Assembly: GCA_002790095.1 (NCBI GenBank)
Contig: PFUL01000024.1
Location: forward strand, 45 to 64,044
Source of the DNA: Elusimicrobia bacterium CG_4_9_14_3_um_filter_62_55
GTDB taxonomy: Bacteria > Elusimicrobiota > Elusimicrobia > UBA1565
DNA length: 64,000 nucleotides
Reading direction: 5' to 3'
Position 1 is the first letter of the stretch. Each line of letters opens with the position of its first letter. Below, piece by piece: positions 622 to 21,281 of the stretch. The notes under the pieces are model-generated. The model searched no databases, was not told the origin of the DNA, and worked only from the letters and a program-made list of their open reading frames with translations. The position numbers and the translations under genes are program-made.

Positions 622-743
622 GAAGCAACGCATGGACAGCCTTGTCCGAATCTTCCGCACCCCACGCGAACCCCGTCAGGGATGTGTCGGCGTCGAATCC
701 GCCGCCGAATCCGTGTCCCTTTCCTAGAGGAAAACTCACTTTT

Positions 744-3700
744 ATGAGCCAAACGAAAAACATCGACCCGAACGAGCCGATCGCCGTCGTCGGACTCGGC
801 AGCGTCTTTCCCGGCGCCCCGAATACCCCGCGATTCTGGGAGAACGTCCTCAACAAGGTCGACTCGATCATCGAGGTCCCCAAGGACCGGTGGGACTGGA
901 AGCTCTACTACAGCGAAGATCGAAAGGCGGAGGACAAAACCTATTCGAAAATAGGGGGATTCATCACGGATTTCTCCTTCGATTCCCTGAAGATGCGAAT
1001 CCCGCCTCCGGTCGCCAGGCAGATGGACACCGTGCAGCAGCTCGCCGTGACCGCAACGGCCGAGGCCCTCAAGGACGCGGGCTACGACGGAAAAGACGTC
1101 GATCACTCCCGGACGGCCGTCATCTTCGGAAACGCGATGGGCGGTCCGAAGAAGGAAGCGTCGGATCTTCGCGTCTACACGGCGATGTACATCGACGAAC
1201 TGCGCAAGAGCAAGACGTTCCAGAAGCTTCCCCAACAACAGCAGGACGCCGTCGCCGTCGAGGTCGAAGGCGCCGTCAAGGCGAGTCTCATGGGCATCAA
1301 CGAGGACACGATGCCGGGAGAACTTTCGAACGTCATCGCCGGCCGCGTCGCGAACACCTTTAACTTGAACGGAACCAACTTTACCGTGGACGCGGCGTGC
1401 GCGGCCTCCCTCGGAGCGATTGCGCAGGCCGTGAACGGGCTGCGCTTTCGCCAGTTCGACATGGCCGTGACCGGCGGCGTCGATCAAATGATGGCGGCCC
1501 CCGCGTATGTGAAATTTTCCAAGATCGGCGCTCTTTCGGCCGGAGGATCCCGGCCGTTCGACGCGAAAGCCGACGGCTTCGTGATGGGCGAAGGCTGCGG
1601 CGTCATCGTCATGAAGCGTCTCTCGGACGCGCTCTCCGCGGGCGATAGGATTTACTGCCTGCTGCGCGGGATCGGGGCCTCGTCCGACGGCCGCGGGAAG
1701 GGAATCACCGCCCCGAACCCGAAAGGACAAAAACTCGCGATCGAACGCTCGTTTGAGGGGCTCAACTACGGACCGGCCGACGTCGGACTGCTGGAAGCTC
1801 ACGGAACCTCGACGAAGGTCGGCGATGCGGTCGAGGTTCAATGCGCGACGGAGCTCTTCGGTTCCGCGAAAACGAAATCCATCGCCCTCGGCTCGGTCAA
1901 ATCCCAGATCGGACACCTGAAAGCGGCCGCCGGCGCCGCCGGGCTGATCAAGGCCGCGCTCGCCCTGCATCACAAGACGCTGCCGCCGACGATCCATTTC
2001 GAAACCCCCAACCCGACGGTGGACTGGGAAACGAGTCCGTTTTTCGTCAACACCGAGGCGCGTCCCTGGGACGACGGACGCGTCCGCCGCGCGAACGTTT
2101 CCGCGTTCGGATTCGGCGGAACGAATTTTCACGTCGCGCTCGAGGAGTTCTGCGATGCGACCCGCTCCTGGACTCCCGGATTGACGCAGGCCGCGCAAGT
2201 GCTGCTCGACCGCGTCGAGGCTCCGGAGCTTCCGGCCTCGCTCGGTGCCGAAGCCTTCATGTTCTCCGGCCCCGACGAAAAATCCGTATTGAACCGAGTG
2301 CGCAAGTACGCCGCGAACGCGCCGAAGTCGGGACCGCTGACCGAGGCCGCCGCCGCGCTCAACGACGCCGGGCACGAGGAATACCGCCTGACGATCGCGG
2401 CCGAGTCCGCTCAAAAGCTCGCTGAGAAAATCCAATTCGCGCTCGAAAAGGCGACGGACGGCGCGTGGGAAAAACCCCCGATTTCCTTCAAGCCCAAGAG
2501 CATCCATCTGGGGAAAAAGCTCGCGAAGGATCCGAAGGTCGCGTTCGTCTTCCCCGGCCAGGGCTCGCAGTACGTCGACATGCTCAAGGACCTGCGCTCC
2601 AAGTATAAGGTCGTCGAGGAAACCTTCGCGGAAGCCGACCGGATCATGACGGGAATTATCGGCGAGGGGCTCTCGGACATCCTCTTCACGAAAGGCGGGG
2701 AAAGCGAGGCGCGCCTCAAGGAAATGCAGGAGCGCATCAAGCAAACGGAGATCACGCAGCCCGCGGTATTGACCGCCGATGTCGCGATCCTGCGTCTCCT
2801 GCGCCGGTTCGGGCTAGAGCCGGACGTCGTCGCCGGCCACAGCCTGGGTGAATACGGCGCGCTCGTCGCCGCCGACGTGCTGTCCTTCGAGGACGCCCTG
2901 CTCGCGGTGAGCGCGCGCGGAAAGGAGATGGCCGACGTGGACGTTCCCGACAATGGAAAAATGGCCTCGGTCGCCGGTCCCGTTGAAAAGGTTCAGGCGA
3001 TTCTCGATCAGATCGACGGCTACGTGATCGCCGCCAACAAGAACTGCCCGATCCAGACCGTGATCGCCGGCGCCTCCGAAGCCGTCGAAGAAGCCATCCG
3101 CCGTTTCCAGGCGGCGGGAATACAAGCCGTCCCGATTGATGTCTCGCACGCGTTCCATTCCGAGATCATCGCCCCCGGCGCCGTCCCCTATGGGAAGTTC
3201 CTCAAGCGAATCTCTCCGAAGGCCCCGAAAATCCCCGTCTCATCGAACGTGACCGGGGGATACTACCCCGCCGACCCCGACGCGGTCCGGGAATTGATGG
3301 TCCGGCAAATCTCTTCTTCGGTCGAGTGGATCAAACAGGTCGAACGTATGTACGACGACGGCGTGCGTCTTTTCCTCGAGTGCGGGCCGAAGCGCGCGCT
3401 GACCGCGTTCATCACCGCCACGCTCGAAAATAAAAAGGATGTGGTGGTCTGCTCTTCCAACCATCCGAAGAAGGGGGGGGTGCACGAGTTCAACGACATG
3501 CTCGCCAAACTCACCGCCGCGGGCATCGAAGTAGACTACTCGGTGACGAAACTCGACTCCGCGAACTGCGTCTACACCGACGGCTACAAGGCGTGGCTTT
3601 CGGCGCAAAATTCCCCGAAGCCCGTTTTCCCCGCGACGACGCCGGTCACCGCCGGCGCGGTCGCGGCCGATGCCGCGGCGCTTCTCGACAAGTGGGACCT

Positions 3701-6700
3701 CTTCCTGGGACCCGTGGTCGTCAGCGGACTCGGAGCGGGAGCTCCCGGATCCTGGGACCGGGTGTTCCGCGAAACCGCGATGGACGACATCCTCGATGGA
3801 AAGAACCTGATCGAACCTGTTTCCGAACAAACGCGCCGGAACATCGTTGAGAAAAACCTCGAAAAGGTGAACAAGAGCGAGTCCGGCAATCACACGATCA
3901 CGCGCTTGGAATCCATCGAGGAAGTGCTGCGCCTCGCAGGTCAGGCCGGTGAGTTCGACATGAGCGTGGAATTCGGCGTTCGCGGCTCGATCTCGAGCTT
4001 GATGGACGCAACGGCCAAGCTGGGACTGGCCGCCTCGATTCTGGCGCTGAAGGACGCGGGAATCCCGCTCGTTCGCCATTACAAGAAAGCGACGACCGGA
4101 AAAATGATTCCGACGAGTTGGGGTCTGCCCTTACCGCTGCAGGCGGAAACCGGCGTCATCATGGCCTCCGCGTTCCCCGGACTCGACAGCCTGATCGAGG
4201 ACATCTCGAACTTCTTCGCGGACAAGTACGGCGCGAAGCCCGAACGCGAGGTCTGGAAGCTCTACGATTCCTTGATCGGAGCGCTGAAGAACGAAAACGA
4301 CCGCAAGGCCGTGACCGATTGGTACGCGGAGTACAAGGCGAAGAACCCCGCCGCCGGCTCAAAGGACGACGCCTATAAGTTCAGTCGGTCCTTCCTATTC
4401 CGCATACTTTCGCTCGGACACGCCCAGACCGCGCAGTTCCTCGGCGCGATGGGCCCCTGCACTCAGGTCAACGCCGCGTGCGCCTCGACGACTCAGGCCG
4501 TCGGAATCGCGGAGGATTGGATCCGCACCGGCCGCTGCAAGCGCGTCATCGTCATGTCGGCCGACGACGTCACCAGCCCGAACCTGCTGCACTGGCTCGG
4601 CACGGGCTTTCTCGCCTCCGGCGCCGCCAGCACGCACAACGTCGTCTCGGAAGCCGCGCTTCCATTCGACCGGCGCCGCAGCGGAATGATCATCGGCATG
4701 GGCGCCTCCGCGCTCGTCGTCGAAAACGGCGACAAAGCCGCCGAACGCGGCGTGACCCCGCTCGCCCAGCTCTTGGCCGCGCAATACGAAAACAGCGCCT
4801 ACCACGTCACGAGACTCAACACCCGACACGTCTGCGAGACCATGGACAAACTGATGCGCAAGGTCGAGAAGCGCTACGGCTACGACCGCTCGAAGGTCGC
4901 GGGCAAAACGCTGTTCATGTCGCACGAAACCTATACGCCGGCCCAGGGGGGAAGCTCGGCGGCCGAGGTCGAAGCGCTGAAGACGACCTTCGGCAGCCGC
5001 GTCGCCGACGTCGTCGTCACCAACACGAAGGGATTCACCGGCCATGCGATGGGCGCGAGCCTCGAAGACGTCATCGCGATCCGAGCGATGAACGTCGGGA
5101 AACTTCCCCCGATCGCGAATTACAAGGAACCCGACCCGGAACTCGCGGGCATCACCCTGTCCAAGGGCGGCGCGTACGACTGCGAGTTTTCGCTGCGCCT
5201 CGCAGCCGGCTTCGGCTCTCAGATCGCGATGACCTTCATGCGGCGGCTGTGGCATGTCTCCCAACCGCGCATTCCCGACTCGCGCCGCTACGACGGTTGG
5301 CTCGCGGCCGTGTCCGGCATCGACGCGCCGAAGCTCGAAGTGGTCAAGAACACGCTGCGCCTCGTAGACGCCGGCGCAGACGCCGCGAAGAAGGCGCTGC
5401 AGCGGACGGCGAGCCCGTCGATCGCGCCGAAAGCCGCGTCCGCCCCATTGTCGGTCGTTCCAAAGAAGGCGAAGCCTGCCTCGCCGGCTCCCGCATCCAA
5501 ACTCGACGAAGCCGCCGTGGAGAAGGAGATCGTCGCCTTGGTCGGCGAAAAAGTCGGCTACCCGGCCGAGATGCTGGAACTCGACCTCGACATGGAAGCG
5601 GATTTGGGCATCGACACGGTCAAGCAGGCGGAACTCATCGGCATCATCCGCGACAAGTATTCGATCCCGGCGGCGGAAAACCTTTCGTTGAAGGACTATC
5701 CGACGCTGCGCCATGTGATCGGGTTCGTAATGGCGGGGGGAGGAAAATCAGAAGCGGCCCCGACGACGACCCCCTCGGTCGAGTCCCCCGAGCCTCTTCA
5801 GCCTTCGGCTCCCCCGCAGCCCGCTCCCGCGTCCGACAAGGACGAAGCGGTGATCACGAAAGAAATCGTGACCTTGGTCAGCGAGAAAGTCGGGTATCCG
5901 GAAGAGATGCTGGAACTCGATCTCGACATGGAAGCGGATTTGGGCATCGACACGGTCAAGCAAGCGGAACTCATCGGCATCATCCGCGACAAGTATTCGA
6001 TCCCGGCGGCGGAAAACCTTTCATTGAAGGACTACCCGACGCTGCGCCATGTGATCGGGTTCGTAATGGCGGGTGGGGGGAAATCGGATGCGGCTCCTAC
6101 GACGACCGCTTCGGTCCAGTCCCCTGAACCCCTTGAGCCTTCGGCTCCCCTGCGGCCTACGGCCGCGGCGCCTGATAGAGACGAAGCCGAGTTGACGAAG
6201 GAGATCACGGCTCTCGTGAGCGAGAAGGTGGGGTATCCGGAGGATATGCTGGAACTCGACCTCGACATGGAAGCGGATCTCGGCATCGACACCGTCAAAC
6301 AGGCCGAACTGATCGGCATATTGCGTGAGAAGTACTCGATCGCGAAGAACGAGAATCTATCCTTGAAGGACTATCCTACGCTGCGGCACGTGATCGGTTT
6401 TGTCCTGTCCGCCGCGCCGGAGACCGCGCCGGAAGCCGCGCCGCAAACGGCGCCTTCCACCGCCGAGGCCGTCGAAGAAGCCCCCCGGTTTGGAACCTGG
6501 GATCTCCAGGCATACGAGAGCCCGCTTTCCTGCCGACCGCGCGCGCTGAACGCGGAAACGGCCGTGGTGCTCCTGGTCGCCGATCCGGAAACCGCCGAAC
6601 CGTTCGCCAAGGCCGTCGAAAAGGCCGGCGGCGATCCGGTGCTCGTCAAAGCCTCCGATTGGGAGAGCGTCGAGAAGGCCGAGGCGGCTCTTCGCCGCGC

Positions 6701-9002
6701 GTTGAAGGACCGCAAGGCCGGCGCGCTCGTCGATCTCACGACGATCGAGATGACGGCCGACGAGTTCGAAAAATGGACCGCGAAGAGTTTTGATAAGGCC
6801 TACCGACACACGGCGAAGGCTGTTTTCCTCGCGGCCAAGGTTCTGCAAAAAGACCTGAACGCCGCCGGGGACTCCGCCTGGATCGCCGCGGTAACCCGGC
6901 TCGGCGGAACGCACGCGGTCGGCGCGAAGAATTTCAATCCGATCGGCGGCGTCGCGACCGGGCTGGTCAAAGCGCTCGACCGGGAATTCGAACACGCCCG
7001 AGTGAAGGCCGTCGACTTCGACGGCGAGGCGGCCCCGGCGTTCATGATCGAGTCGCTGCTCCGGGAGCTCGCGTCGGAGGACCCGCATCGTGAAATCGGC
7101 TACGCGGGAAATACCCGCAGCCTGCTCCGCTTGGTCCCGAGCAAAGCGGAAACCCTCGACACCGTGAAATTCGGACACAAGCACGTCACGCTGATCACGG
7201 GCGGCGGACAAGGTCTCGGCGCGGAACTCGCGAAAAAAATCGCGGCGGATCACAAATCCCCGCTGATTCTGCTCGGCCGCACGTCCCTCGCCAAGGAAGC
7301 GACGGCGTGGGCGCGAATGTCGGACGAAGAATTGGCGGCAATGAAGGCCGAGATGTGGGCGAAACTCAAGGCGGAGGCCAAGAAGGACAAGAAGAAGAAA
7401 GCCACGCCGGCGATTCTTGAACAGGAATTCTCCAAGATCGCCAAAGGGATCGCCCTCCAGAAGACCATCGAGGCGCTGATTCTGCTCGGCTCCAAGGTGG
7501 ACTACTTCAGCGTCGACATGGCCGACGGACCCGCCGTCACGAAAGCCGTCAAGCAGGCGCTCGCGAAGTTCGGGACCATCGACGTGGTCTTCCACGCCGC
7601 CGGACTGGAGGAGAGCAAACTTCTCGCGGACAAGAAACCCGAGAACTTCGACCGCGTCTTCCGCGCGAAGGCGAACGGAGCGTTTCATCTGATCAAGGCG
7701 CTTCCGCCCCGTCGCGGCCAGCGCTGGGCGTTCTTCTCGTCGGTGGTCGGACGATTCGGGAACCTGGGACAGACCGATTACGCCGCGTGCAGCGATTTTC
7801 TCTCGAAACTCGCCGCACGCATCAACGCCGACGGCGGTTCCGCGGTGACCTACGATCTGACCGCATTCTCCGACATCGGAATGGCGACCCGAGGAAGCGT
7901 CGAACAATTCCTGAAGTCGCAGGGCGTGGATTTCATGCCCCCGGCGACCGGCGTCTCCTTGATGTTCGAGACCATGAAGAAAAACACCCGCACACACGAG
8001 GTGCTCGTCGCCGGCGCGCTCGGGAAACTCGACGAAGAGGCTTTGATCGAAACGGCCCGAAGCCCGAAAAAGACAAGCGGCAGCGTTCTCGCGGGCCGCT
8101 CCGAAACGGAAACGCCGTCCTCCGCCGCGATGAAGCCGCCCAAGCGGCTCGGCGCGCTCCCGGAAGGGAGGCCGTTGTTCGATGAACTGGTTTCCAGCAA
8201 CGGCTCGGGGCACGTCACGTCGAAGGAGTTCAGTCTCGAATCCGACCCCTGGCTGGTCGACCATGCCGTCGGCGGAACCCCGTGGGTCGCGGGCGTAATG
8301 GGCTTGGAACTCTTCGCGGAAACCGCGGCAAAATTGCTCGGGGAGGTTCCCGCCGCCTTTGAGGACGTGAAATTCCAACTCCCGATCAAGCTTTTGCGCA
8401 AACGTCCGATCAAGGTTCGCGCCGTGGCCCAAACCGAGGGCTCCGCGACGACGCTGCGCATCGAGTCGGACTTCATCTCTCCACAGGGGATCAAGCTCGG
8501 GGCACCGCGCACACACTTCACCGGACGGGTCCTTTCGGATCCCGCTGCAGGCTGGAACGGCGTGCCGGCTCCACTCGACTCCGCCCAGGCGGTCGCCGTG
8601 GACTCCGCGGTCATTTACGAGGCTTATTTTCATGGCCCGCGCTTCCAGGTACTCGAGGGAATCACGGAGATCGCCGAGAACGGCCTCACCGCCGTCTATA
8701 AACGAAACCTCGAACTTTGGGACGCGAACCCGCGCCGCCTCGCATTTCAGCCGATGCTCATCGAGGCCGCCTTCCAGGCTTGCGGCTACCGGGATCTTCA
8801 CTTCACGAAGAGGATGACGCTCCCCGACTCGATCGGAAAAGTGCGCGTGTTCAAGACCGAGACGCCGCCGCAGCGGCTCGAGGTTCGCGTCCGCTTCAAG
8901 GGCACCGAGGGGGACAAATCGGTATACGACGCCGCGGTCGTCGACAAGGACGGAACCGTCTGGATCGCGCTCGAAGACTACCGGATGATCCGGATTTCCT
9001 AA
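744..9002 (+). CDS. Iterative type I PKS/FAS, PfaA-like secondary lipid synthase: KS-AT-KS-ACP-ACP-ACP-KR-DH
   Basis: KS1: DAACAAS, EAHGTST, IGHLKAAAG. AT: FPGQGSQ, GHSLG, HAFH. KS2: NAACAST, SHETYT, TGHAMGAS. Three ACP repeats (DLDMEADLGIDTVKQAE). KR: TGGGQGLG, GQTDYAAC. DH: DHAVGGTP, YFHGPRFQ, IEAAFQ. ATG 744 follows GAGG, so the TTG at 642 is probably too early. Confidence 0.93.
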   Translation: MSQTKNIDPNEPIAVVGLGSVFPGAPNTPRFWENVLNKVDSIIEVPKDRWDWKLYYSEDRKAEDKTYSKIGGFITDFSFDSLKMRIPPPVARQMDTVQQLAVTATAEALKDAGYDGKDVDHSRTAVIFGNAMGGPKKEASDLRVYTAMYIDELRKSKTFQKLPQQQQDAVAVEVEGAVKASLMGINEDTMPGELSNVIAGRVANTFNLNGTNFTVDAACAASLGAIAQAVNGLRFRQFDMAVTGGVDQMMAAPAYVKFSKIGALSAGGSRPFDAKADGFVMGEGCGVIVMKRLSDALSAGDRIYCLLRGIGASSDGRGKGITAPNPKGQKLAIERSFEGLNYGPADVGLLEAHGTSTKVGDAVEVQCATELFGSAKTKSIALGSVKSQIGHLKAAAGAAGLIKAALALHHKTLPPTIHFETPNPTVDWETSPFFVNTEARPWDDGRVRRANVSAFGFGGTNFHVALEEFCDATRSWTPGLTQAAQVLLDRVEAPELPASLGAEAFMFSGPDEKSVLNRVRKYAANAPKSGPLTEAAAALNDAGHEEYRLTIAAESAQKLAEKIQFALEKATDGAWEKPPISFKPKSIHLGKKLAKDPKVAFVFPGQGSQYVDMLKDLRSKYKVVEETFAEADRIMTGIIGEGLSDILFTKGGESEARLKEMQERIKQTEITQPAVLTADVAILRLLRRFGLEPDVVAGHSLGEYGALVAADVLSFEDALLAVSARGKEMADVDVPDNGKMASVAGPVEKVQAILDQIDGYVIAANKNCPIQTVIAGASEAVEEAIRRFQAAGIQAVPIDVSHAFHSEIIAPGAVPYGKFLKRISPKAPKIPVSSNVTGGYYPADPDAVRELMVRQISSSVEWIKQVERMYDDGVRLFLECGPKRALTAFITATLENKKDVVVCSSNHPKKGGVHEFNDMLAKLTAAGIEVDYSVTKLDSANCVYTDGYKAWLSAQNSPKPVFPATTPVTAGAVAADAAALLDKWDLFLGPVVVSGLGAGAPGSWDRVFRETAMDDILDGKNLIEPVSEQTRRNIVEKNLEKVNKSESGNHTITRLESIEEVLRLAGQAGEFDMSVEFGVRGSISSLMDATAKLGLAASILALKDAGIPLVRHYKKATTGKMIPTSWGLPLPLQAETGVIMASAFPGLDSLIEDISNFFADKYGAKPEREVWKLYDSLIGALKNENDRKAVTDWYAEYKAKNPAAGSKDDAYKFSRSFLFRILSLGHAQTAQFLGAMGPCTQVNAACASTTQAVGIAEDWIRTGRCKRVIVMSADDVTSPNLLHWLGTGFLASGAASTHNVVSEAALPFDRRRSGMIIGMGASALVVENGDKAAERGVTPLAQLLAAQYENSAYHVTRLNTRHVCETMDKLMRKVEKRYGYDRSKVAGKTLFMSHETYTPAQGGSSAAEVEALKTTFGSRVADVVVTNTKGFTGHAMGASLEDVIAIRAMNVGKLPPIANYKEPDPELAGITLSKGGAYDCEFSLRLAAGFGSQIAMTFMRRLWHVSQPRIPDSRRYDGWLAAVSGIDAPKLEVVKNTLRLVDAGADAAKKALQRTASPSIAPKAASAPLSVVPKKAKPASPAPASKLDEAAVEKEIVALVGEKVGYPAEMLELDLDMEADLGIDTVKQAELIGIIRDKYSIPAAENLSLKDYPTLRHVIGFVMAGGGKSEAAPTTTPSVESPEPLQPSAPPQPAPASDKDEAVITKEIVTLVSEKVGYPEEMLELDLDMEADLGIDTVKQAELIGIIRDKYSIPAAENLSLKDYPTLRHVIGFVMAGGGKSDAAPTTTASVQSPEPLEPSAPLRPTAAAPDRDEAELTKEITALVSEKVGYPEDMLELDLDMEADLGIDTVKQAELIGILREKYSIAKNENLSLKDYPTLRHVIGFVLSAAPETAPEAAPQTAPSTAEAVEEAPRFGTWDLQAYESPLSCRPRALNAETAVVLLVADPETAEPFAKAVEKAGGDPVLVKASDWESVEKAEAALRRALKDRKAGALVDLTTIEMTADEFEKWTAKSFDKAYRHTAKAVFLAAKVLQKDLNAAGDSAWIAAVTRLGGTHAVGAKNFNPIGGVATGLVKALDREFEHARVKAVDFDGEAAPAFMIESLLRELASEDPHREIGYAGNTRSLLRLVPSKAETLDTVKFGHKHVTLITGGGQGLGAELAKKIAADHKSPLILLGRTSLAKEATAWARMSDEELAAMKAEMWAKLKAEAKKDKKKKATPAILEQEFSKIAKGIALQKTIEALILLGSKVDYFSVDMADGPAVTKAVKQALAKFGTIDVVFHAAGLEESKLLADKKPENFDRVFRAKANGAFHLIKALPPRRGQRWAFFSSVVGRFGNLGQTDYAACSDFLSKLAARINADGGSAVTYDLTAFSDIGMATRGSVEQFLKSQGVDFMPPATGVSLMFETMKKNTRTHEVLVAGALGKLDEEALIETARSPKKTSGSVLAGRSETETPSSAAMKPPKRLGALPEGRPLFDELVSSNGSGHVTSKEFSLESDPWLVDHAVGGTPWVAGVMGLELFAETAAKLLGEVPAAFEDVKFQLPIKLLRKRPIKVRAVAQTEGSATTLRIESDFISPQGIKLGAPRTHFTGRVLSDPAAGWNGVPAPLDSAQAVAVDSAVIYEAYFHGPRFQVLEGITEIAENGLTAVYKRNLELWDANPRRLAFQPMLIEAAFQACGYRDLHFTKRMTLPDSIGKVRVFKTETPPQRLEVRVRFKGTEGDKSVYDAAVVDKDGTVWIALEDYRMIRIS
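5500..6410 (+). repeat. Three tandem ACP-coding repeats (periods 336 and 339 nt) with Pro/Ala/Ser linkers
   Basis: Near-identical DNA around ...GGCATCGACACGGTCAAGCA...; the DT Thr codons are at 5616, 5952 and 6291. Confidence 0.9.
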
Positions 9003-9772
9003 TGGCGGCGACCGCAATGCTCGAAAGCTCTCAGCCGTTGACCGACGACTTCGAGAAACCGTTTCGCTTCGAAGCCGTCGACGCGACCGAGACCGAGCCT
9101 GTCGCAAAGCGCCTCGAAGCCGAAGACGCGACGCCCGAATCGGTCGCCGTGCTCGGTCCTGGGGAATTCGAGAAGGGACGGACGCTGAAGATCCCAAAGC
9201 GCCGCCGCGAGTGGCTCGCGGCACGGCTCGCCGCCAAGCGCCTGCTCGGCTGGCACCTGCAGCAGGAAGGAGTCTATTTGAGGCCGAACCAGATCGAGAT
9301 TCTTAACCGCGAAGACGGCTCGCCGCGCGTCCTCCTCGAAGGACGAAGAGACTACGATACCGTCTCACTCTCGCTGTCGCACTCCCGCGGAACGGGCGTC
9401 GCCGCGATCGCCCCGCCGGGACTCCGGGTCGGAGTGGATCTCGAGGCGATCGAACCCCGTGCGGCGTCGTTTCTCTCCGTGATGGCCCACGACGAGGAGT
9501 GGGGCGATTGGATGGATCACGATTTATCCGAACAGACGCGCCTCTGGACGCTCAAGGAGGCCGTCTCGAAACTCCTCCTCACCGGATTTACGGTCGGCTT
9601 TCACGACGTTCGCTTCCCGCTGCACGGCGAAACGCGCCGACTCTCGCTTCACAACAAGGCGCTTGAAACCTACGAACGCCTCGGATCCCCGATTATCCAT
9701 TTCGATTCCTTCGTCCGGCAGGACGAAGTCCTGAGCATCGCCTACACGACAGGAGATTCCGTTCATGGCTGA
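9002..9772 (+). CDS. 4'-phosphopantetheinyl transferase (Sfp/EntD-like)
   Basis: RRREWLAARLAAK, LSLSHS, GVDLE and WTLKEAVSK motifs; ATG overlaps the PKS stop (TAATG). Confidence 0.88.
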   Translation: MAATAMLESSQPLTDDFEKPFRFEAVDATETEPVAKRLEAEDATPESVAVLGPGEFEKGRTLKIPKRRREWLAARLAAKRLLGWHLQQEGVYLRPNQIEILNREDGSPRVLLEGRRDYDTVSLSLSHSRGTGVAAIAPPGLRVGVDLEAIEPRAASFLSVMAHDEEWGDWMDHDLSEQTRLWTLKEAVSKLLLTGFTVGFHDVRFPLHGETRRLSLHNKALETYERLGSPIIHFDSFVRQDEVLSIAYTTGDSVHG

Positions 9773-14715: not shown

Positions 14716-15701
<986 letters not shown>

Positions 15702-15705
<4 letters not shown>

Positions 15706-16721
15706 GTTCCCCGCTGCTCGAAGTCCGCGGACTCAAAACCCATTTCTCGGTCGCCGGCGAGACTTTTTTCGATCCGAAGCGGACGGTAAAAGCGGTGGAC
15801 GGAATCTCCTTTTCCATCGAGAAGGGAGACACCTTCGGATTGATCGGCGAATCGGGATGCGGAAAAACCACGCTCGGGCGCACGATTCTCGCGCTCGAAG
15901 AGCGCACGGAAGGGGACGCGATTTTCGAAGGACGCAGCATCTTCGCGCTGTCCAAGCGGGAATTGCGGGGAATGCGCCGAAACGTTCAGGTCATTTTTCA
16001 AGACCCGTTTTCCAGCCTCGATCCCCGCATGACCGTCCGTCAAATTTTGGAGGAGCCTTTCGAGATTCACGGCATCCTGCCGTCCCCCCGCGGACGGCGC
16101 GAGCGCATTCTCGAGCTCATGGACGTCGTGGGACTTCCCGCCGCGCACCTGGAACGCTATCCCCATCAATTCTCGGGAGGACAGCGGCAGCGCATCGGCA
16201 TCGCGCGGGCTCTCGCGCTCAACCCGAAGTTGATCGTTTGCGACGAACCCGTCTCCGCGCTCGATGTCTCGATTCAAGCCCAGATCCTCAATCTTCTCCA
16301 AGACCTCCAACGGGATTTCGATCTTACCTATCTCTTTATTGCGCATGATTTTTCCGTGGTCCGCCATCTCTGCAACAAGGTCGCGGTGATGTATCTGGGC
16401 CGCATCGTCGAGTTGGGGGAAACCGACGCGCTGTTCGAAAATCCCCAGCATCCCTACACGGAAGCCCTGCTCTCCGCGGTTCCGGTTCCGGATCCCTCCA
16501 TCGAGAAGCGCCGCAAGCGGATCCTATTGACCGGAGACGTCCCGAGCCCGCTGAATCCGCCTCCGGGCTGTCCTTTTCACCCGCGCTGCCGGTACGCGCA
16601 GGATTCCTGCCGCGTCGAAACGCCGGCGCTGAACGAGGTTCGAGACGCTCATTTCGCCGCCTGCCCGGTTTTGCCGTTTAAGGACGCTCCAAGCGCGGCC
16701 GCGCTGATCGAAGCAGAATAG
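15702..16721 (+). CDS. Peptide ABC transporter ATPase (DppF/OppF-like), copy 1
   Basis: [24 protein letters not shown] and PPGCPFHPRC. Confidence 0.95.
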
Positions 16722-16722
16722 C

Positions 16723-17436
16723 TTATTGCGGGCGGGGGGAGGGTCGGTAGGCCAGCCGCAACCCCGCGGCCAATAAGGCGAAGGCGGCGACGGCGAGCGT
16801 CCCTCCCCAAAACCAGTAGGGTCCGAGCAGAATCTCTCCGATGCGGGCGGAATCCGAGAGCATCGGCGTGCCCGCGATCGTGATGTCTTTCGTGAAGAGA
16901 TAGTCGAGTTGGCGGTAGGTGCTCAAACAGGCTTGAACCCCGAAAAACTGGACTAAAAACCCCTGCAAATCCGCGGGAAGCCATCTCAAGGCCCCGAAGA
17001 TCGCGGCGCCCATCAAGACCGTGAAGCAGATTCCGAAAAGCGTTCTCACCCACAGCACCGCCGAGAGGATCAAGAGGAAACCCAGCAGAGCGAGACCGGC
17101 CCTGGCGGTTGAAATCCGCCGGGAAGACAAGATCAACAGAAATCCCGCCACCGGGGCCCCGAGCGGACCTCCCGCTGAAACCATCGCCCGGCCGAACGGC
17201 CCGCCGAAGACGCTCCCGGTATGGTAGGCCAGTCCCGAGAGGTTGGAGTACAGACGCAGCGTCTCGAAACGCCCCCCGAGGAGCATCGCCGTCAGACCAT
17301 GCCCCATCTCGTGAAACCAGGTCGCCAAAGCGGAAAAGGGATAAAGGATGTAGCCCCCGTAGGGGACCCGCCATAAAACCACCATCAAGGCGGCCGCCGC
17401 GATCAGCCACGGCAAACCCATCGTGCGTTCCCGCAT
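16723..17436 (-). CDS. Peptidase M50B-like membrane zinc metalloprotease
   Basis: FHEMGHG (HExxH), multiple TM helices and the SDS motif; start 6 nt after TATCCT. Confidence 0.85.
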   Translation of the reverse strand: MRERTMGLPWLIAAAALMVVLWRVPYGGYILYPFSALATWFHEMGHGLTAMLLGGRFETLRLYSNLSGLAYHTGSVFGGPFGRAMVSAGGPLGAPVAGFLLILSSRRISTARAGLALLGFLLILSAVLWVRTLFGICFTVLMGAAIFGALRWLPADLQGFLVQFFGVQACLSTYRQLDYLFTKDITIAGTPMLSDSARIGEILLGPYWFWGGTLAVAAFALLAAGLRLAYRPSPRPQ

Positions 17437-17464
17437 CCCGCAAGGATAGGCTATAATCGGCCCA

Positions 17465-18466
17465 GTGTCCAAGACGGTTCTGGAAGTAGAGAATCTCACA
17501 ACCGAGTTTCACGTGGAGGCCGGCGTCGCCCGCGCGGTCGACGGGGTATCGTTCCACCTAAAGGAAGGGGAGACGCTCGGACTGGTGGGAGAATCCGGCT
17601 CCGGAAAATCGGTGACCTCGCTTTCTTTGATGCGGCTGGTGCCGGAGCCCCCGGGGCGCATCCTCCCCTCATCCAAAATCCGGATCAACGGGCGGGACAT
17701 CCTCAAGGTTTCAGACCGGGAGATGCAGAAGATTCGCGGGGATGAAATCGCGATGATATTTCAGGACCCGATGACGGCGCTCAACCCCGTCTTTACCATC
17801 GGCAACCAACTGTCCGAGGTGCTCCGCCGCCATCAAGGACTCAACGCGCAATCCGCCCGAAAGCGGGGGGTCGAACTGCTCGAGACCGTCGGAATTCCAG
17901 CGCCGAAAAAACGCATCGACAACTACCCGCACCAGCTTTCCGGGGGGATGCGCCAGCGGGCGATGATCGCGATGGCGCTCTCGTGCAACCCGAAGATCTT
18001 GATCGCCGACGAACCGACGACCGCTCTCGACGTCACGATTCAAGCCCAGATCCTTGAACTCATCAACAAGCTCCAAAAGGAAATCGGGATGGCGACGATC
18101 CTGATCACCCACGACCTCGCCGTGGTTGCGGAGGTCTGTGATCGCGTGGCCGTGATGTACTGCGGCAGGATCGTGGAGGAGTCCGATATTTTCGATCTCT
18201 TCGAGCATCCCCAACACCCGTACACGCGAGGGCTGATCTCCTCGATCCCCCGCATCGACGACGCGGAAAAGGGGCGCGGCGAGTTGTACGCGATCCCGGG
18301 CATGGTCCCCGACATCCACTCCCTTCCCGACGGCTGTCGCTTCGCCGAGCGCTGCTTCCAAGCCGAAGCCCGATGCCGATCCGAAAACCCGGTACTTCGC
18401 GAGACCGCCGACGGCCGCAGCGTTTCCTGCCTGTTTCCTTTGTCCAAGGATGGGACCCTTCGATGA
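17465..18466 (+). CDS. Peptide ABC transporter ATPase (OppD-like), copy 2
   Basis: [16 protein letters not shown] and DEPTTALD. Confidence 0.95.
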
Positions 18467-19467
18467 GCGACGCGCTCCTGGAAGTGAAGGACCTGAAGAA
18501 GCACTTTCCGATCAAGGGCGGGGTCCTGCGCAAAACCGTCGGGCAGGTCTATGCGGTCGACGGAGTGAGCTTCACGCTCATGCCGGGAGAGACGCTCGGA
18601 CTGGTCGGAGAATCAGGCTGCGGGAAATCCACGCTCGGGCGGACGATCATCCGCCTCTACGACGTCACCGCGGGTGAAATGAAATTCCAGGGCAAAGACA
18701 TCGCCTACGCGACGGGGAAAGGACTGCTCCCCGTTCGCCGGGACATGGGCATGATCTTCCAGGACCCCTACGCCAGCCTCAATCCGCGGATGACCGTCGC
18801 GCAGATCATCGAGGCGCCGATGGAGGTTCACAAGAAAGGCGCTCCGGCCGAGCGGAAGGACCTCATCGCGGAACTGCTCGAGGTCGTCGGCCTGCGCGCG
18901 AAGATGGCCAACCGCTACCCGCACGAATTTTCGGGGGGACAGCGTCAGCGCATCGGCATCGCCCGGGCGCTGATCCTCCAGCCCAAACTCGTCATCGCCG
19001 ATGAACCCGTGTCCGCGCTCGATGTCTCCATCCAGGCGCAGGTGATCAATTTGATGATGAGGCTGAAGGATCAGTTCAAACTGACCTATATTTTCATCGC
19101 CCACGACCTCGCGGTGGTTGAGCATATCTCCACGACGGTCGCCGTCATGTACCTGGGACACATCATGGAGAAGGCTTCCTCGAAAACCCTTTACGCGAAC
19201 CCAAAACACCCGTACACGCGAGCCTTGATCGAATCCATTCCGATCGCCGACCCGAGAAAACGCAAGCCGCCGGAAGAGAAAAAAACCCTTAGGGGGGACA
19301 TCCCGAGCCCGATCACGCCTCCCTCCGGCTGCGTCTTTCACACGCGCTGTCCGATCGCCGAAGAACGCTGCCGCGTTGAAGTGCCGGCGCTGCGCGATCT
19401 CGGGGCCGGCGGCGAGGAGCATTGGGTAAAATGCCATCTGGCGGAACCTCCAGGAGAAACATCATGA
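18463..19467 (+). CDS. Peptide ABC transporter ATPase (OppF-like), copy 2
   Basis: [16 protein letters not shown]; ATGA overlap with the upstream gene. Confidence 0.95.
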
Positions 19468-21281
19468 AGAAAGCTCTCGAAAAATTTGCCGCTCTTGCGA
19501 TCGCCGCGGCGATGACGATGACGACCGCCTGCAAAGGATCCGGCTCCTCCTCGGAAGGCCTGAAGGTTCTCGAATACGGCGCCGTCGCGGTGGCGGGCTC
19601 CTCCGACCCCAACGACTACGCCTCCATGTACGATCTCGATCTCGGCGCGCTGGTTTACGACACGCTTTACGAGTACGACTACCTCGCCCGCCCCTTCAAA
19701 CTCAAGCCCGGGATGGCCGAGGCGATGCCGAAGGTCACCCACAATGGAAAGACCTACACGATCAAGCTCAAGAAGGGCATTGAGTACATCGACGACAAGT
19801 GTTTTGAAAAGACCGGCGGAAAAGGCCGCGAAGCCGTCGCCGGGGATTTCGTCTACAACCTCTACCGCAAGGCCGATTCCCTCTCGAAATCCCAGAACTG
19901 GTGGCTGGTCTCGGGACAGATCGCGGGCTTGGACGCCCTGCGCGACAAGTACAACGGCAAGGAATTCAACTACGACGAAAAAATCGACGATCTGAAAGCC
20001 GTCGATGATCACACGATTCAGTTTACGCTGAAAAAACCGTTCCCCCAGATCATGTGGGTGCTGGCGATGGCGGGGATGACCCTTTATCCGAAGGAATGCG
20101 TGGACTATTACGGCGAGGACTTCGACAACCATCCGGTCGGCACCGGCGCCTTCCGCATGACGGAATGGCAGAAAAACGCGAAGTATACCTTGGTTCGAAA
20201 CGAGAAATACAGAGAAGACCTCTTTCCCTCGGAAGGGACCTCCGAGGACAAGACCGCCGGGCGCCTGGCCGACGCGGGCAAAAGGATGCCGTTCGCGGAC
20301 AAGGTGATCGTCCACGAATTCTCCCAATCCCAGCCGTATTGGCTGCAGTTCCGGGCGGGGAAAAGCGCCTGGGGCCGCGTTCCGGGGGAATTTACCGAGG
20401 AGGTCTTTCAGATCGAGTCGCGCGAAGGCAACAAGAAGACCTGGAAAAAAGACGCCGCGGGCAACCGCATCCTCGCGGACTCCTACGCAGGCAAGTACGA
20501 CTACTACCCGCTGCCGCTGCTCGACTTCATTTACCGCGCGTTCAACTACGAGGACGAGGTCGTCGGCGGGGAGAAGGGGAAAAAGCTGAGACAGGCGATT
20601 TCACTCACGCATGATCTCAACGAGGAAAACGACCTGTTCTACAACGGACTCAACAAGGTCTACGCGGGAATCATCCCGCCCGGCGTCGGGGGCTTCGATC
20701 CGGCAGTGAAGAACCCGTACGCCGGCGCCGATCTGGAGAAGGCAAAGGCCCTGCTCGCCGAGGCGGGATATCCCGGGGGGAAGGGCCTGCCTGAACTCCA
20801 GCTCTGCGGCGGCAACGACGCGCGCACGATGGAGCAGGCGGCCAACTTCATCCGAAACGCCAAGCGCATCGGCGTGAAGATTCGCTACGAGGCGATGCGC
20901 TTCGCCGAACTCTCCGCAAAACTTAAGCAAAAGCGCTGTCAGATGATGGGCCTGGCCTGGGGCGGCGACTGGCCCGACGCCCAGAACTTCATCCAGCTCG
21001 CGTACGGCCCGAACAAATCCCCGGGCTCGAACAACGCGAACTACGACAACCCGAAGCTCAACAAGATCTATGAGAGGTCCTCCGTGATGCCCAACGGCCC
21101 GGAGCGAAACAAGCTCTACCAGCAGATGAACGCGATCGTGATCGAGGATTCGGCGTACCTCGGGGCCATGGCCCGCACCCGCGATTATCTGATTCCTTTC
21201 GGCACGAAGAACTTCAAGCCGGAGGAGATGATCCACACCCACGCGAAGTACATCCGCCTCGACAAGTGGGGGAAGAAGTAA
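19464..21281 (+). CDS. Peptide ABC transporter substrate-binding lipoprotein (family 5)
   Basis: Lipobox TTAC, YDTLYEYD, PVGTGAF, AKALLAEAGYP and WGGDWPD; AGGAG SD. Confidence 0.92.
   Translation: MKKALEKFAALAIAAAMTMTTACKGSGSSSEGLKVLEYGAVAVAGSSDPNDYASMYDLDLGALVYDTLYEYDYLARPFKLKPGMAEAMPKVTHNGKTYTIKLKKGIEYIDDKCFEKTGGKGREAVAGDFVYNLYRKADSLSKSQNWWLVSGQIAGLDALRDKYNGKEFNYDEKIDDLKAVDDHTIQFTLKKPFPQIMWVLAMAGMTLYPKECVDYYGEDFDNHPVGTGAFRMTEWQKNAKYTLVRNEKYREDLFPSEGTSEDKTAGRLADAGKRMPFADKVIVHEFSQSQPYWLQFRAGKSAWGRVPGEFTEEVFQIESREGNKKTWKKDAAGNRILADSYAGKYDYYPLPLLDFIYRAFNYEDEVVGGEKGKKLRQAISLTHDLNEENDLFYNGLNKVYAGIIPPGVGGFDPAVKNPYAGADLEKAKALLAEAGYPGGKGLPELQLCGGNDARTMEQAANFIRNAKRIGVKIRYEAMRFAELSAKLKQKRCQMMGLAWGGDWPDAQNFIQLAYGPNKSPGSNNANYDNPKLNKIYERSSVMPNGPERNKLYQQMNAIVIEDSAYLGAMARTRDYLIPFGTKNFKPEEMIHTHAKYIRLDKWGKK

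Follow-up and report, generated by a model that had tools for sequence, protein, structure and literature searches.

Threonine in place of serine at the putative phosphopantetheine site of a widespread family of PfaA-like lipid megasynthases

The carrier-protein biochemistry of fatty acid synthases, polyketide synthases (PKSs), non-ribosomal peptide synthetases and polyunsaturated fatty acid (PUFA) synthases rests on serine-linked phosphopantetheine, and this serine is taken for granted in annotation patterns, in engineering rules and in labelling tags. To our knowledge the residue is otherwise invariant in carrier proteins, consistent with the alignments to solved carriers given below. The closest described system to the locus studied here is the Type R secondary lipid synthase (Shulse and Allen 2011, PLoS One, PMC3098273), which according to the main text of that paper comprises one pfaA homologue with the domain order KS-MAT-CLF-ACP(3-6)-KR followed by a 4'-phosphopantetheinyl transferase (PPTase) gene. 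It was reported there from five genomes of Acidobacteria, Elusimicrobia and Chloroflexi (Koribacter, Solibacter, Elusimicrobium, Roseiflexus); the Koribacter cluster includes an acetyl-CoA carboxylase gene, and Type R PPTases carry an hShxH (P1b') motif (PMC3098273). Here we analyse such a cluster in a 64,000-nt stretch of DNA (the window) from Elusimicrobia bacterium CG_4_9_14_3_um_filter_62_55 (GCA_002790095.1, contig PFUL01000024.1, positions 45..64,044, forward strand). Its PfaA-like megasynthase shares with Type R the domain order with three acyl carrier protein (ACP) domains and a PPTase directly downstream that carries hShxH, so that, as far as the published main text describes it, this is a Type R cluster and the cluster type is already known. 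It differs from the description in that the domain called CLF keeps Cys-His-His in the window's family and a DH domain is also present; the family is, in addition, far wider than the five published genomes and reaches Thermoplasmatota archaea. All three ACP domains of the window's synthase have threonine at the phosphopantetheine site, and judging from sequence this threonine is likely to be the attachment site, with phosphopantetheine installed by the Sfp-type PPTase of the cluster.

Each of the three ACPs reads DLDMEADLGIDTVKQAEL, with the threonine encoded by ACG at 5616, ACG at 5952 and ACC at 6291. DNA and translation thus agree exactly with the original prediction, and two different codons occur in three copies. 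The Pfam PP-binding model (PF00550) matches three stretches of the protein (E 2.2e-17, 63.5 bits against a cut-off of 20.8); the score and the four-helix ACP fold speak for membership, while in 3/3 domains, which are 77-90 residues long, threonine replaces the serine that is otherwise conserved where helix II begins. When aligned with carriers of the same genome, the threonine shares a column with the serine of AcpP (DLGADS) and of a second PfaA-like synthase (DLGIDS). In an AlphaFold (AF2) model of ACP1 (pLDDT 86.1), which superimposes on solved ACPs with TM 0.74-0.84, the threonine is the first residue of helix II. A profile of the threonine carriers matches 17 solved carriers, and in the five displayed alignments the threonine column faces either Ser or X, the latter of which we take to be modified serine. 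The earlier argument that the threonine is no single sequencing error is borne out by Logan contigs from four other public runs (X10-X13, not flagged as possible sources), which contain all three threonine codons and differ from the window over this region only by two synonymous changes, at 5627 and 5963. No RNA run was listed among those containing the sequence. ACP1 and ACP2 share 94% of their amino acids and differ little in DNA, and it is inside this repeat that the short-read contigs of the other runs end, so that metagenome-assembled homologues may have more ACP copies than are counted.

Three homologue searches with different biases were used to follow the residue through the family. 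The first was seeded with words from the ACP region and gave 4394 matches among 8000 scored candidates; in the best 120, analysed together with the window's own protein, threonine stands at the site in 607/607 ACP domains of 121 proteins (six of these domains and two of these proteins being the window's own), and there is almost no variation in the block D-[LM]-E-A-D-L-G-[IV]-D-T-V-K-Q-A-E. Because a search with ACP words could favour threonine through the shared words, a motif-independent search was run with the second ketosynthase domain (KS2) alone against 1.84 billion cluster representatives, without a word index, yielding 9508 matches at E<=1e-3 and 539 at E<=1e-30. Among the best 150 of these, 130 have ACP-like matches and 129 a clean G-x-D-[ST] site; these 129 divide into 123 with threonine only, four with serine only and two mixed, one of the mixed proteins (P0138) consisting of four threonine carriers and one degenerate serine-bearing domain. 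Carriers stand in tandem among the representatives, from 1 to 6 per protein, as in PUFA synthases. The third search used two peptide patterns from the first ketosynthase (KS1) only and covered the best 80 of 587 confirmed relative loci. ACPs are present in 72/80, in which 218/218 complete sites are threonine and six more matches are cut by contig ends. This count in 72 other loci excludes chance. The 218 codons comprise 101 ACC, 89 ACG, 15 ACT and 13 ACA; as all four threonine codons occur although serine is one base change away, the residue is evidently maintained by selection. The sites in nine relatives' genomes are likewise threonine (20/20). GIDT is therefore conserved, and threonine is the rule among homologues, the opposite of a family carrying mostly serine. 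Extra ACP-like domains in five proteins (P0149, P0168, P0209, P0158 and P0217) keep the TGYP...DLG context but lack both Ser and Thr at the site; from their sequence, they may be carriers that have degenerated and now serve a structural purpose.

The remainder of the synthase has the features of a working enzyme. Its Pfam domain order is KS-AT-KS2-ACPx3-KR-DH, and in an alignment of 20 sequences the KS1 triad C253/H387/H425, AT S734, KR S2367/Y2380 and DH H2541 are invariant, as are KS2 C1280/H1428/H1468 (20/20 homologues). The earlier statement that the KS, AT, KR and DH catalytic residues are intact thus extends to the aligned family, and since these residues are invariant we conclude that the synthase is under selection as an enzyme; together with an open frame of 8.3 kb, they also uphold the argument made against a dead gene. 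KS2, called CLF in the Type R description, looks from its residues like a second active ketosynthase and not a chain-length factor. The NCBIfam PfaA model TIGR02813 does not reach its cut-off of 1010.1 with this protein, which scores 944.4 bits, the best stretch being the KS-AT part (model positions 7-919 of 2582).

The second element that bears on the threonine is the PPTase. Among 29 aligned cluster PPTases, the standard motifs S-x-S-H-S, G-x-D-x-E and W-S-x-K-E-A-x-x-K are retained, with G144, D146, K185, E186 and K190 invariant and E148 and W182 nearly so; the window's enzyme carries SLSHS, the hShxH motif of Type R, of which S124/H127 are conserved in the alignment. A single-sequence search of the window's PPTase against the PDB gave nothing better than E 0.06. 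A profile built from the 29 homologues finds Sfp (1qr0/4mrt) at 9e-16, placing K185/E186/K190 opposite Sfp K150/E151/K155. The AF2 model (pLDDT 86.8) has as its best Foldseek match the Sfp-CoA-PCP complex 4mrt_A (E 4.7e-12, TM 0.67/0.75), and the two-lobed pseudo-dimeric fold of about 230 residues, along with the metal-binding and catalytic motifs, places the enzyme in the Sfp-type (group II). Its N-terminal half (9002..9400) keeps K-R-x-x-E-W-L-x-G-R-x-A-A-K, and as a profile fits B. subtilis AcpS (1f7l, 2.5e-17) better than Sfp.

The gene for this enzyme travels with the synthase. In 56 loci the synthase C-terminus is present, 53 of them with at least 1 kb of sequence downstream, and a PPTase of the same family lies on the same strand as the synthase in 50/53. 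It is adjacent in 23 loci (<300 nt), farther downstream in 24 (345 nt to 5.8 kb, mostly ~5.6 kb from the synthase) and fused in three, which are archaeal. In the one farther-downstream locus that was checked, from an acidobacterium (L025, 14888..20560), the intervening sequence encodes a 1890-aa multidomain acetyl-CoA carboxylase with biotin carboxylase, biotinyl domain, ACC central region and carboxyltransferase; unlike this locus, the window has a carboxyltransferase alone, after the PPTase. The three loci without a PPTase are from Acidobacteria, and their sequence ends about where the PPTase usually begins. Furthermore, the PPTase forms the C-terminal domain of the synthase in 39 of the 269 proteins analysed. 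That the PPTase acts on these carriers is argued chiefly from its fusion to the synthase and from a linkage that is close to universal. A complex prediction of PPTase, ACP, CoA and Mg scored 0.80 and the same prediction with an unrelated protein replacing the PPTase 0.75, and was used for neither side.

By record titles, the 72 ACP-holding loci come from at least eight phyla, the named ones belonging to Elusimicrobiota, Acidobacteriota, Chloroflexota, Actinomycetota, Myxococcota, Gemmatimonadota, Binatia, "delta proteobacteria" and Thermoplasmatota archaea. The nearest named relatives of the window's synthase are Elusimicrobiota. Among 30 relative genomes, the synthase is present in 15/16 of the same family and 6/6 of a second family, and 8/8 genomes of a third family gave no strong synthase match. 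The synthase-bearing lineage is common in soil, groundwater and gut. The Thermoplasmatota versions (L023, L028, L083; protein P0048) are single polypeptides of 3000-3800 aa with a fused PPTase, to which precomputed Pfam matches of P0048 add a PF03060-type enoyl reductase; the occurrence of a bacterial-type lipid megasynthase in these archaea is notable in itself.

The few serine-bearing members provide a view of PPTase specificity. Their architecture is that of the threonine members. P0156 has five serine carriers and P0195 a tandem of Ser, Thr and Ser carriers, and both are fused to a PPTase of the same family. In a KS2 tree of 123 of the 151 sequences (those covering <450 query residues were dropped) with four KS1 outgroups, used for local grouping only and not for the direction or number of changes, serine members stand singly beside threonine sisters. 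This scatter and the mixed tandem of P0195 make Ser and Thr look interchangeable at the site. A metagenome scan for a locus of the serine-only P0156 returned only a 26%-identical relative (L090), so that the PPTase context of serine-type members is known from the fused proteins alone. The window's own genome also encodes, on contig C121 (loci L002 and L003), a second PfaA-like synthase (a 2052-aa open reading frame) with two serine carriers (DLGIDS), and its AcpP keeps serine as well. No further Sfp-type PPTase was found in this genome, which is 95% complete and holds only an AcpS-like gene and the cluster PPTase; the near-complete relatives G005 and G012 also have a serine-type PfaA-like synthase, again without a further Sfp-type PPTase. 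Second PfaA-like systems occur in several relatives. Because a serine-type synthase is present in the same genome without another Sfp-type PPTase, the cluster enzyme may serve both residues, and on this sequence evidence it probably accepts both Ser and Thr; a strictly Thr-specific, co-evolved PPTase is not supported by the sequences. The original prediction had proposed a threonine-linked system with a co-evolved threonine-accepting PPTase, to be recognised by co-occurrence with one PPTase clade. The linkage holds, one PPTase family being found in 50/53 loci or, in 39/269 proteins, fused to the synthase; exclusive specificity for threonine does not, as the same family is fused to the serine-only P0156 and the mixed P0195.

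Because threonine is family-wide and the PPTase tightly linked, threonine-linked phosphopantetheine is the leading reading. On this reading, the threonine of D-L-G-[IV]-D-T-V-K-Q-A-E, which opens helix II, would take over the role that the attachment serine has in canonical carriers. The cluster PPTase, whose Mg/CoA and catalytic Glu/Lys motifs are of the standard form, would move phosphopantetheine from CoA onto the threonine hydroxyl, the AT would load the resulting holo carriers, and the loaded carriers would serve both KS domains as well as KR and DH. In its broader form, which we regard as probable, O-(4'-phosphopantetheinyl)-threonine would be the native linkage of a whole ancient lipid-megasynthase family, spanning at least eight bacterial phyla as well as Thermoplasmatota and made by its own clade of Sfp-type PPTases able to accept a secondary alcohol.

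Several points weigh against this proposal. The modification of the threonine is, for every family member, inferred from sequence and predicted structure. In E. coli AcpP, the exchange S36T gave a protein that, by the account available in PMC3340395, is non-functional and cannot receive 4'-phosphopantetheine; in this one documented canonical system, then, the secondary alcohol is not trivially accepted. No position among the 19 conserved PPTase columns separates the threonine-paired enzymes from that of the serine-paired P0156 (P0195 ends before the last seven of these columns), and the absence of a distinguishing residue leaves the structural basis of threonine acceptance unexplained. The KS2 tree is poorly rooted, with one of its four outgroups placed elsewhere and support values not considered, and cluster representatives at 50% identity can mask variation within clusters. 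Lastly, the main text of PMC3098273 contains neither the word threonine nor the word serine, for which reason we take threonine carriers to be undescribed in it, and its supplements (e.g. Figure S3, on PPTases) might comment on the carriers. Nothing on threonine attachment was found in the accessible parts of PMC8602292, bioRxiv 10.1101/2025.01.28.635281 and PMC13291983, and the literature searched, which covered few subscription journals and so leaves absence unproven, yielded neither a natural threonine attachment site nor threonine-linked phosphopantetheine. The threonine carriers of the Type R family thus appear not to have been described before.

Among the alternatives, the one that survives best, though it is unlikely, is that the threonine carriers are never phosphopantetheinylated and act as structural or docking domains of a synthase that uses a separate serine-type carrier such as AcpP. 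The reported behaviour of AcpP S36T (PMC3340395) would fit, and the domains of P0149, P0168 and P0209 without Ser or Thr show that non-carrier ACP folds exist in the family; but the threonine domains are the sole carriers in 123/129 carrier-bearing proteins, they stand in tandem arrays of 1 to 6 with a nearly invariant core motif, and the adjacent or fused PPTase would be left unexplained. Slightly less probable again is a different group on the threonine hydroxyl, either a directly oxoester-linked acyl chain or another CoA-derived group. What is attached is indeed deduced, and the TVKQAE surroundings are much more rigid than those of ordinary carriers, which hints at unusual recognition. However, the linked enzyme belongs to the ordinary Sfp-type PPTases and has their Mg/CoA and catalytic motifs, the cluster contains no other conserved modifying enzyme (its only other conserved gene being a carboxylase), and the KS, KR and DH domains are of the thioester-acting kind. 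Attachment to another serine of the ACP domain, such as those in KYSIP and ENLSL to which the original prediction had pointed, is very improbable: both serines are present in the window's three copies, but no serine column is conserved across the 607 domains (KYS Ser in 16%, NLS Ser in 8%), and the two positions lie outside the helix II N-terminus in the AF2 model. A sequencing or assembly artefact or a decaying gene, for which one could cite only that ACP repeats do break short-read contigs, has a negligible chance against three copies with two codons, four agreeing runs, hundreds of homologues with threonine, and invariant catalytic residues in an open frame, and was rejected on the four-run contigs and the 218/218 sites.

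Returning to threonine-linked phosphopantetheine, the observation behind it is that a widespread family retains both a threonine at this site, under strong selection, and a PPTase of its own. If the proposal is correct, it would constitute a new post-translational linkage and mean that a PPTase active site can take a secondary alcohol; the assumption of an obligatory serine would fail for natural enzymes numbering in the hundreds to thousands, and motif annotation that demands serine would overlook their carriers. It may also account for the separation, or the sharing, of two Pfa-like systems within one cell, and the threonine carrier with its PPTase would be a possible orthogonal pair, permitting tagging orthogonal to AcpS. 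P0156 and P0195 are natural material on the question of whether one PPTase takes both residues.

The coordinates of the synthase, its domains and the two genes that follow it are collected in Table 1, with residue numbers counted from the longest open reading frame, which opens at TTG 642 (2786 aa). The likely start is ATG 744 (2752 aa), since the identical database protein P0003 is 2752 aa long, equal to a start at Met35 of the longer frame.

Table 1. Positions of the megasynthase operon and of the synthase domains in the window
Feature	Position	Strand	Basis
PfaA-like megasynthase gene	744..9002 (longest ORF 642..9002)	+	ORF, translation, Pfam domains
First ketosynthase (KS1), aa 45-500	774..2141	+	Pfam ketoacyl-synt and Ketoacyl-synt_C; Cys253/His387/His425
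Acyltransferase (AT), aa 635-963	2544..3530	+	Pfam Acyl_transf_1 8.9e-43; Ser734 in GHSLGE
Second KS-like domain (KS2), aa 1030-1590	3729..5411	+	Second stretch of Pfam KS models; Cys1280/His1428/His1468
ACP1, Thr1659, codon ACG 5616-5618	5517..5747	+	Pfam PP-binding
ACP2, Thr1771, codon ACG 5952-5954	5853..6083	+	Pfam PP-binding
ACP3, Thr1884, codon ACC 6291-6293	6192..6422	+	Pfam PP-binding
Ketoreductase (KR), aa 2183-2409	7188..7868	+	Pfam KR 2.8e-28
PKS-type dehydratase (DH), aa 2511-2785	8172..8996	+	Pfam PKS_DH_N and PS-DH; His2541
Sfp-type 4'-phosphopantetheinyl transferase (PPTase), 256 aa	9002..9772	+	Pfam ACPS 3.5e-13
Acyl-CoA carboxyltransferase, 534 aa	9765..11369	+	Pfam Carboxyl_trans 2e-182

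The ATG of the PPTase gene at 9002 (stop 9770-9772) shares one nucleotide with the synthase stop codon TAA 9000-9002, an overlap that had been noted from the sequence at the outset, and the carboxyltransferase ATG at 9765 creates an 8-nt overlap with the end of the PPTase gene. As the gene ends overlap and the genes beyond the carboxyltransferase lie on the opposite strand and are unrelated, synthase, PPTase and carboxyltransferase form a three-gene, translationally coupled operon. The carboxyltransferase scores 705 bits and does not reach the NCBIfam mmdA subfamily cut-off of 998.8; it probably supplies malonyl-CoA. Farther along the window, at 14716..21281 (+), lie four oligopeptide-type ABC ATPase genes and a family-5 solute-binding protein gene, apparently unrelated to the synthase operon.

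Beyond Type R, the nearest points of comparison are the PfaA/PfaE PUFA synthases, including the serine-type synthase of the same genome. They share with the window's system KS-AT, tandem ACPs, KR, DH and activation by an Sfp-type PPTase, and differ in their serine carriers and in the lack of a second KS between AT and ACPs; the ACP motif of the same-genome PfaA-like synthase reads DLGIDS-IKRVE, that of the window's synthase DLGIDT-VKQAE. The known substrates of Sfp from Bacillus subtilis are serine carriers. Sfp (1qr0, 4mrt) is the best fold match of the window's PPTase, with ISHS, G-x-D-x-E and W-S-x-K-E-x-x-x-K aligned, whereas the identity between the two enzymes is ~14% and the presumed substrate of the window's enzyme is threonine. 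The nearest solved carrier by sequence, the PigH doublet ACP (5y08; profile E 2.7e-14), has tandem ACPs and the TGY...DLG-x-D context as well, but carries serine at the site and belongs to prodigiosin biosynthesis. Finally, E. coli AcpP S36T, as reported in PMC3340395, has the same substitution at the same position, while in the window's family threonine is the conserved natural state.

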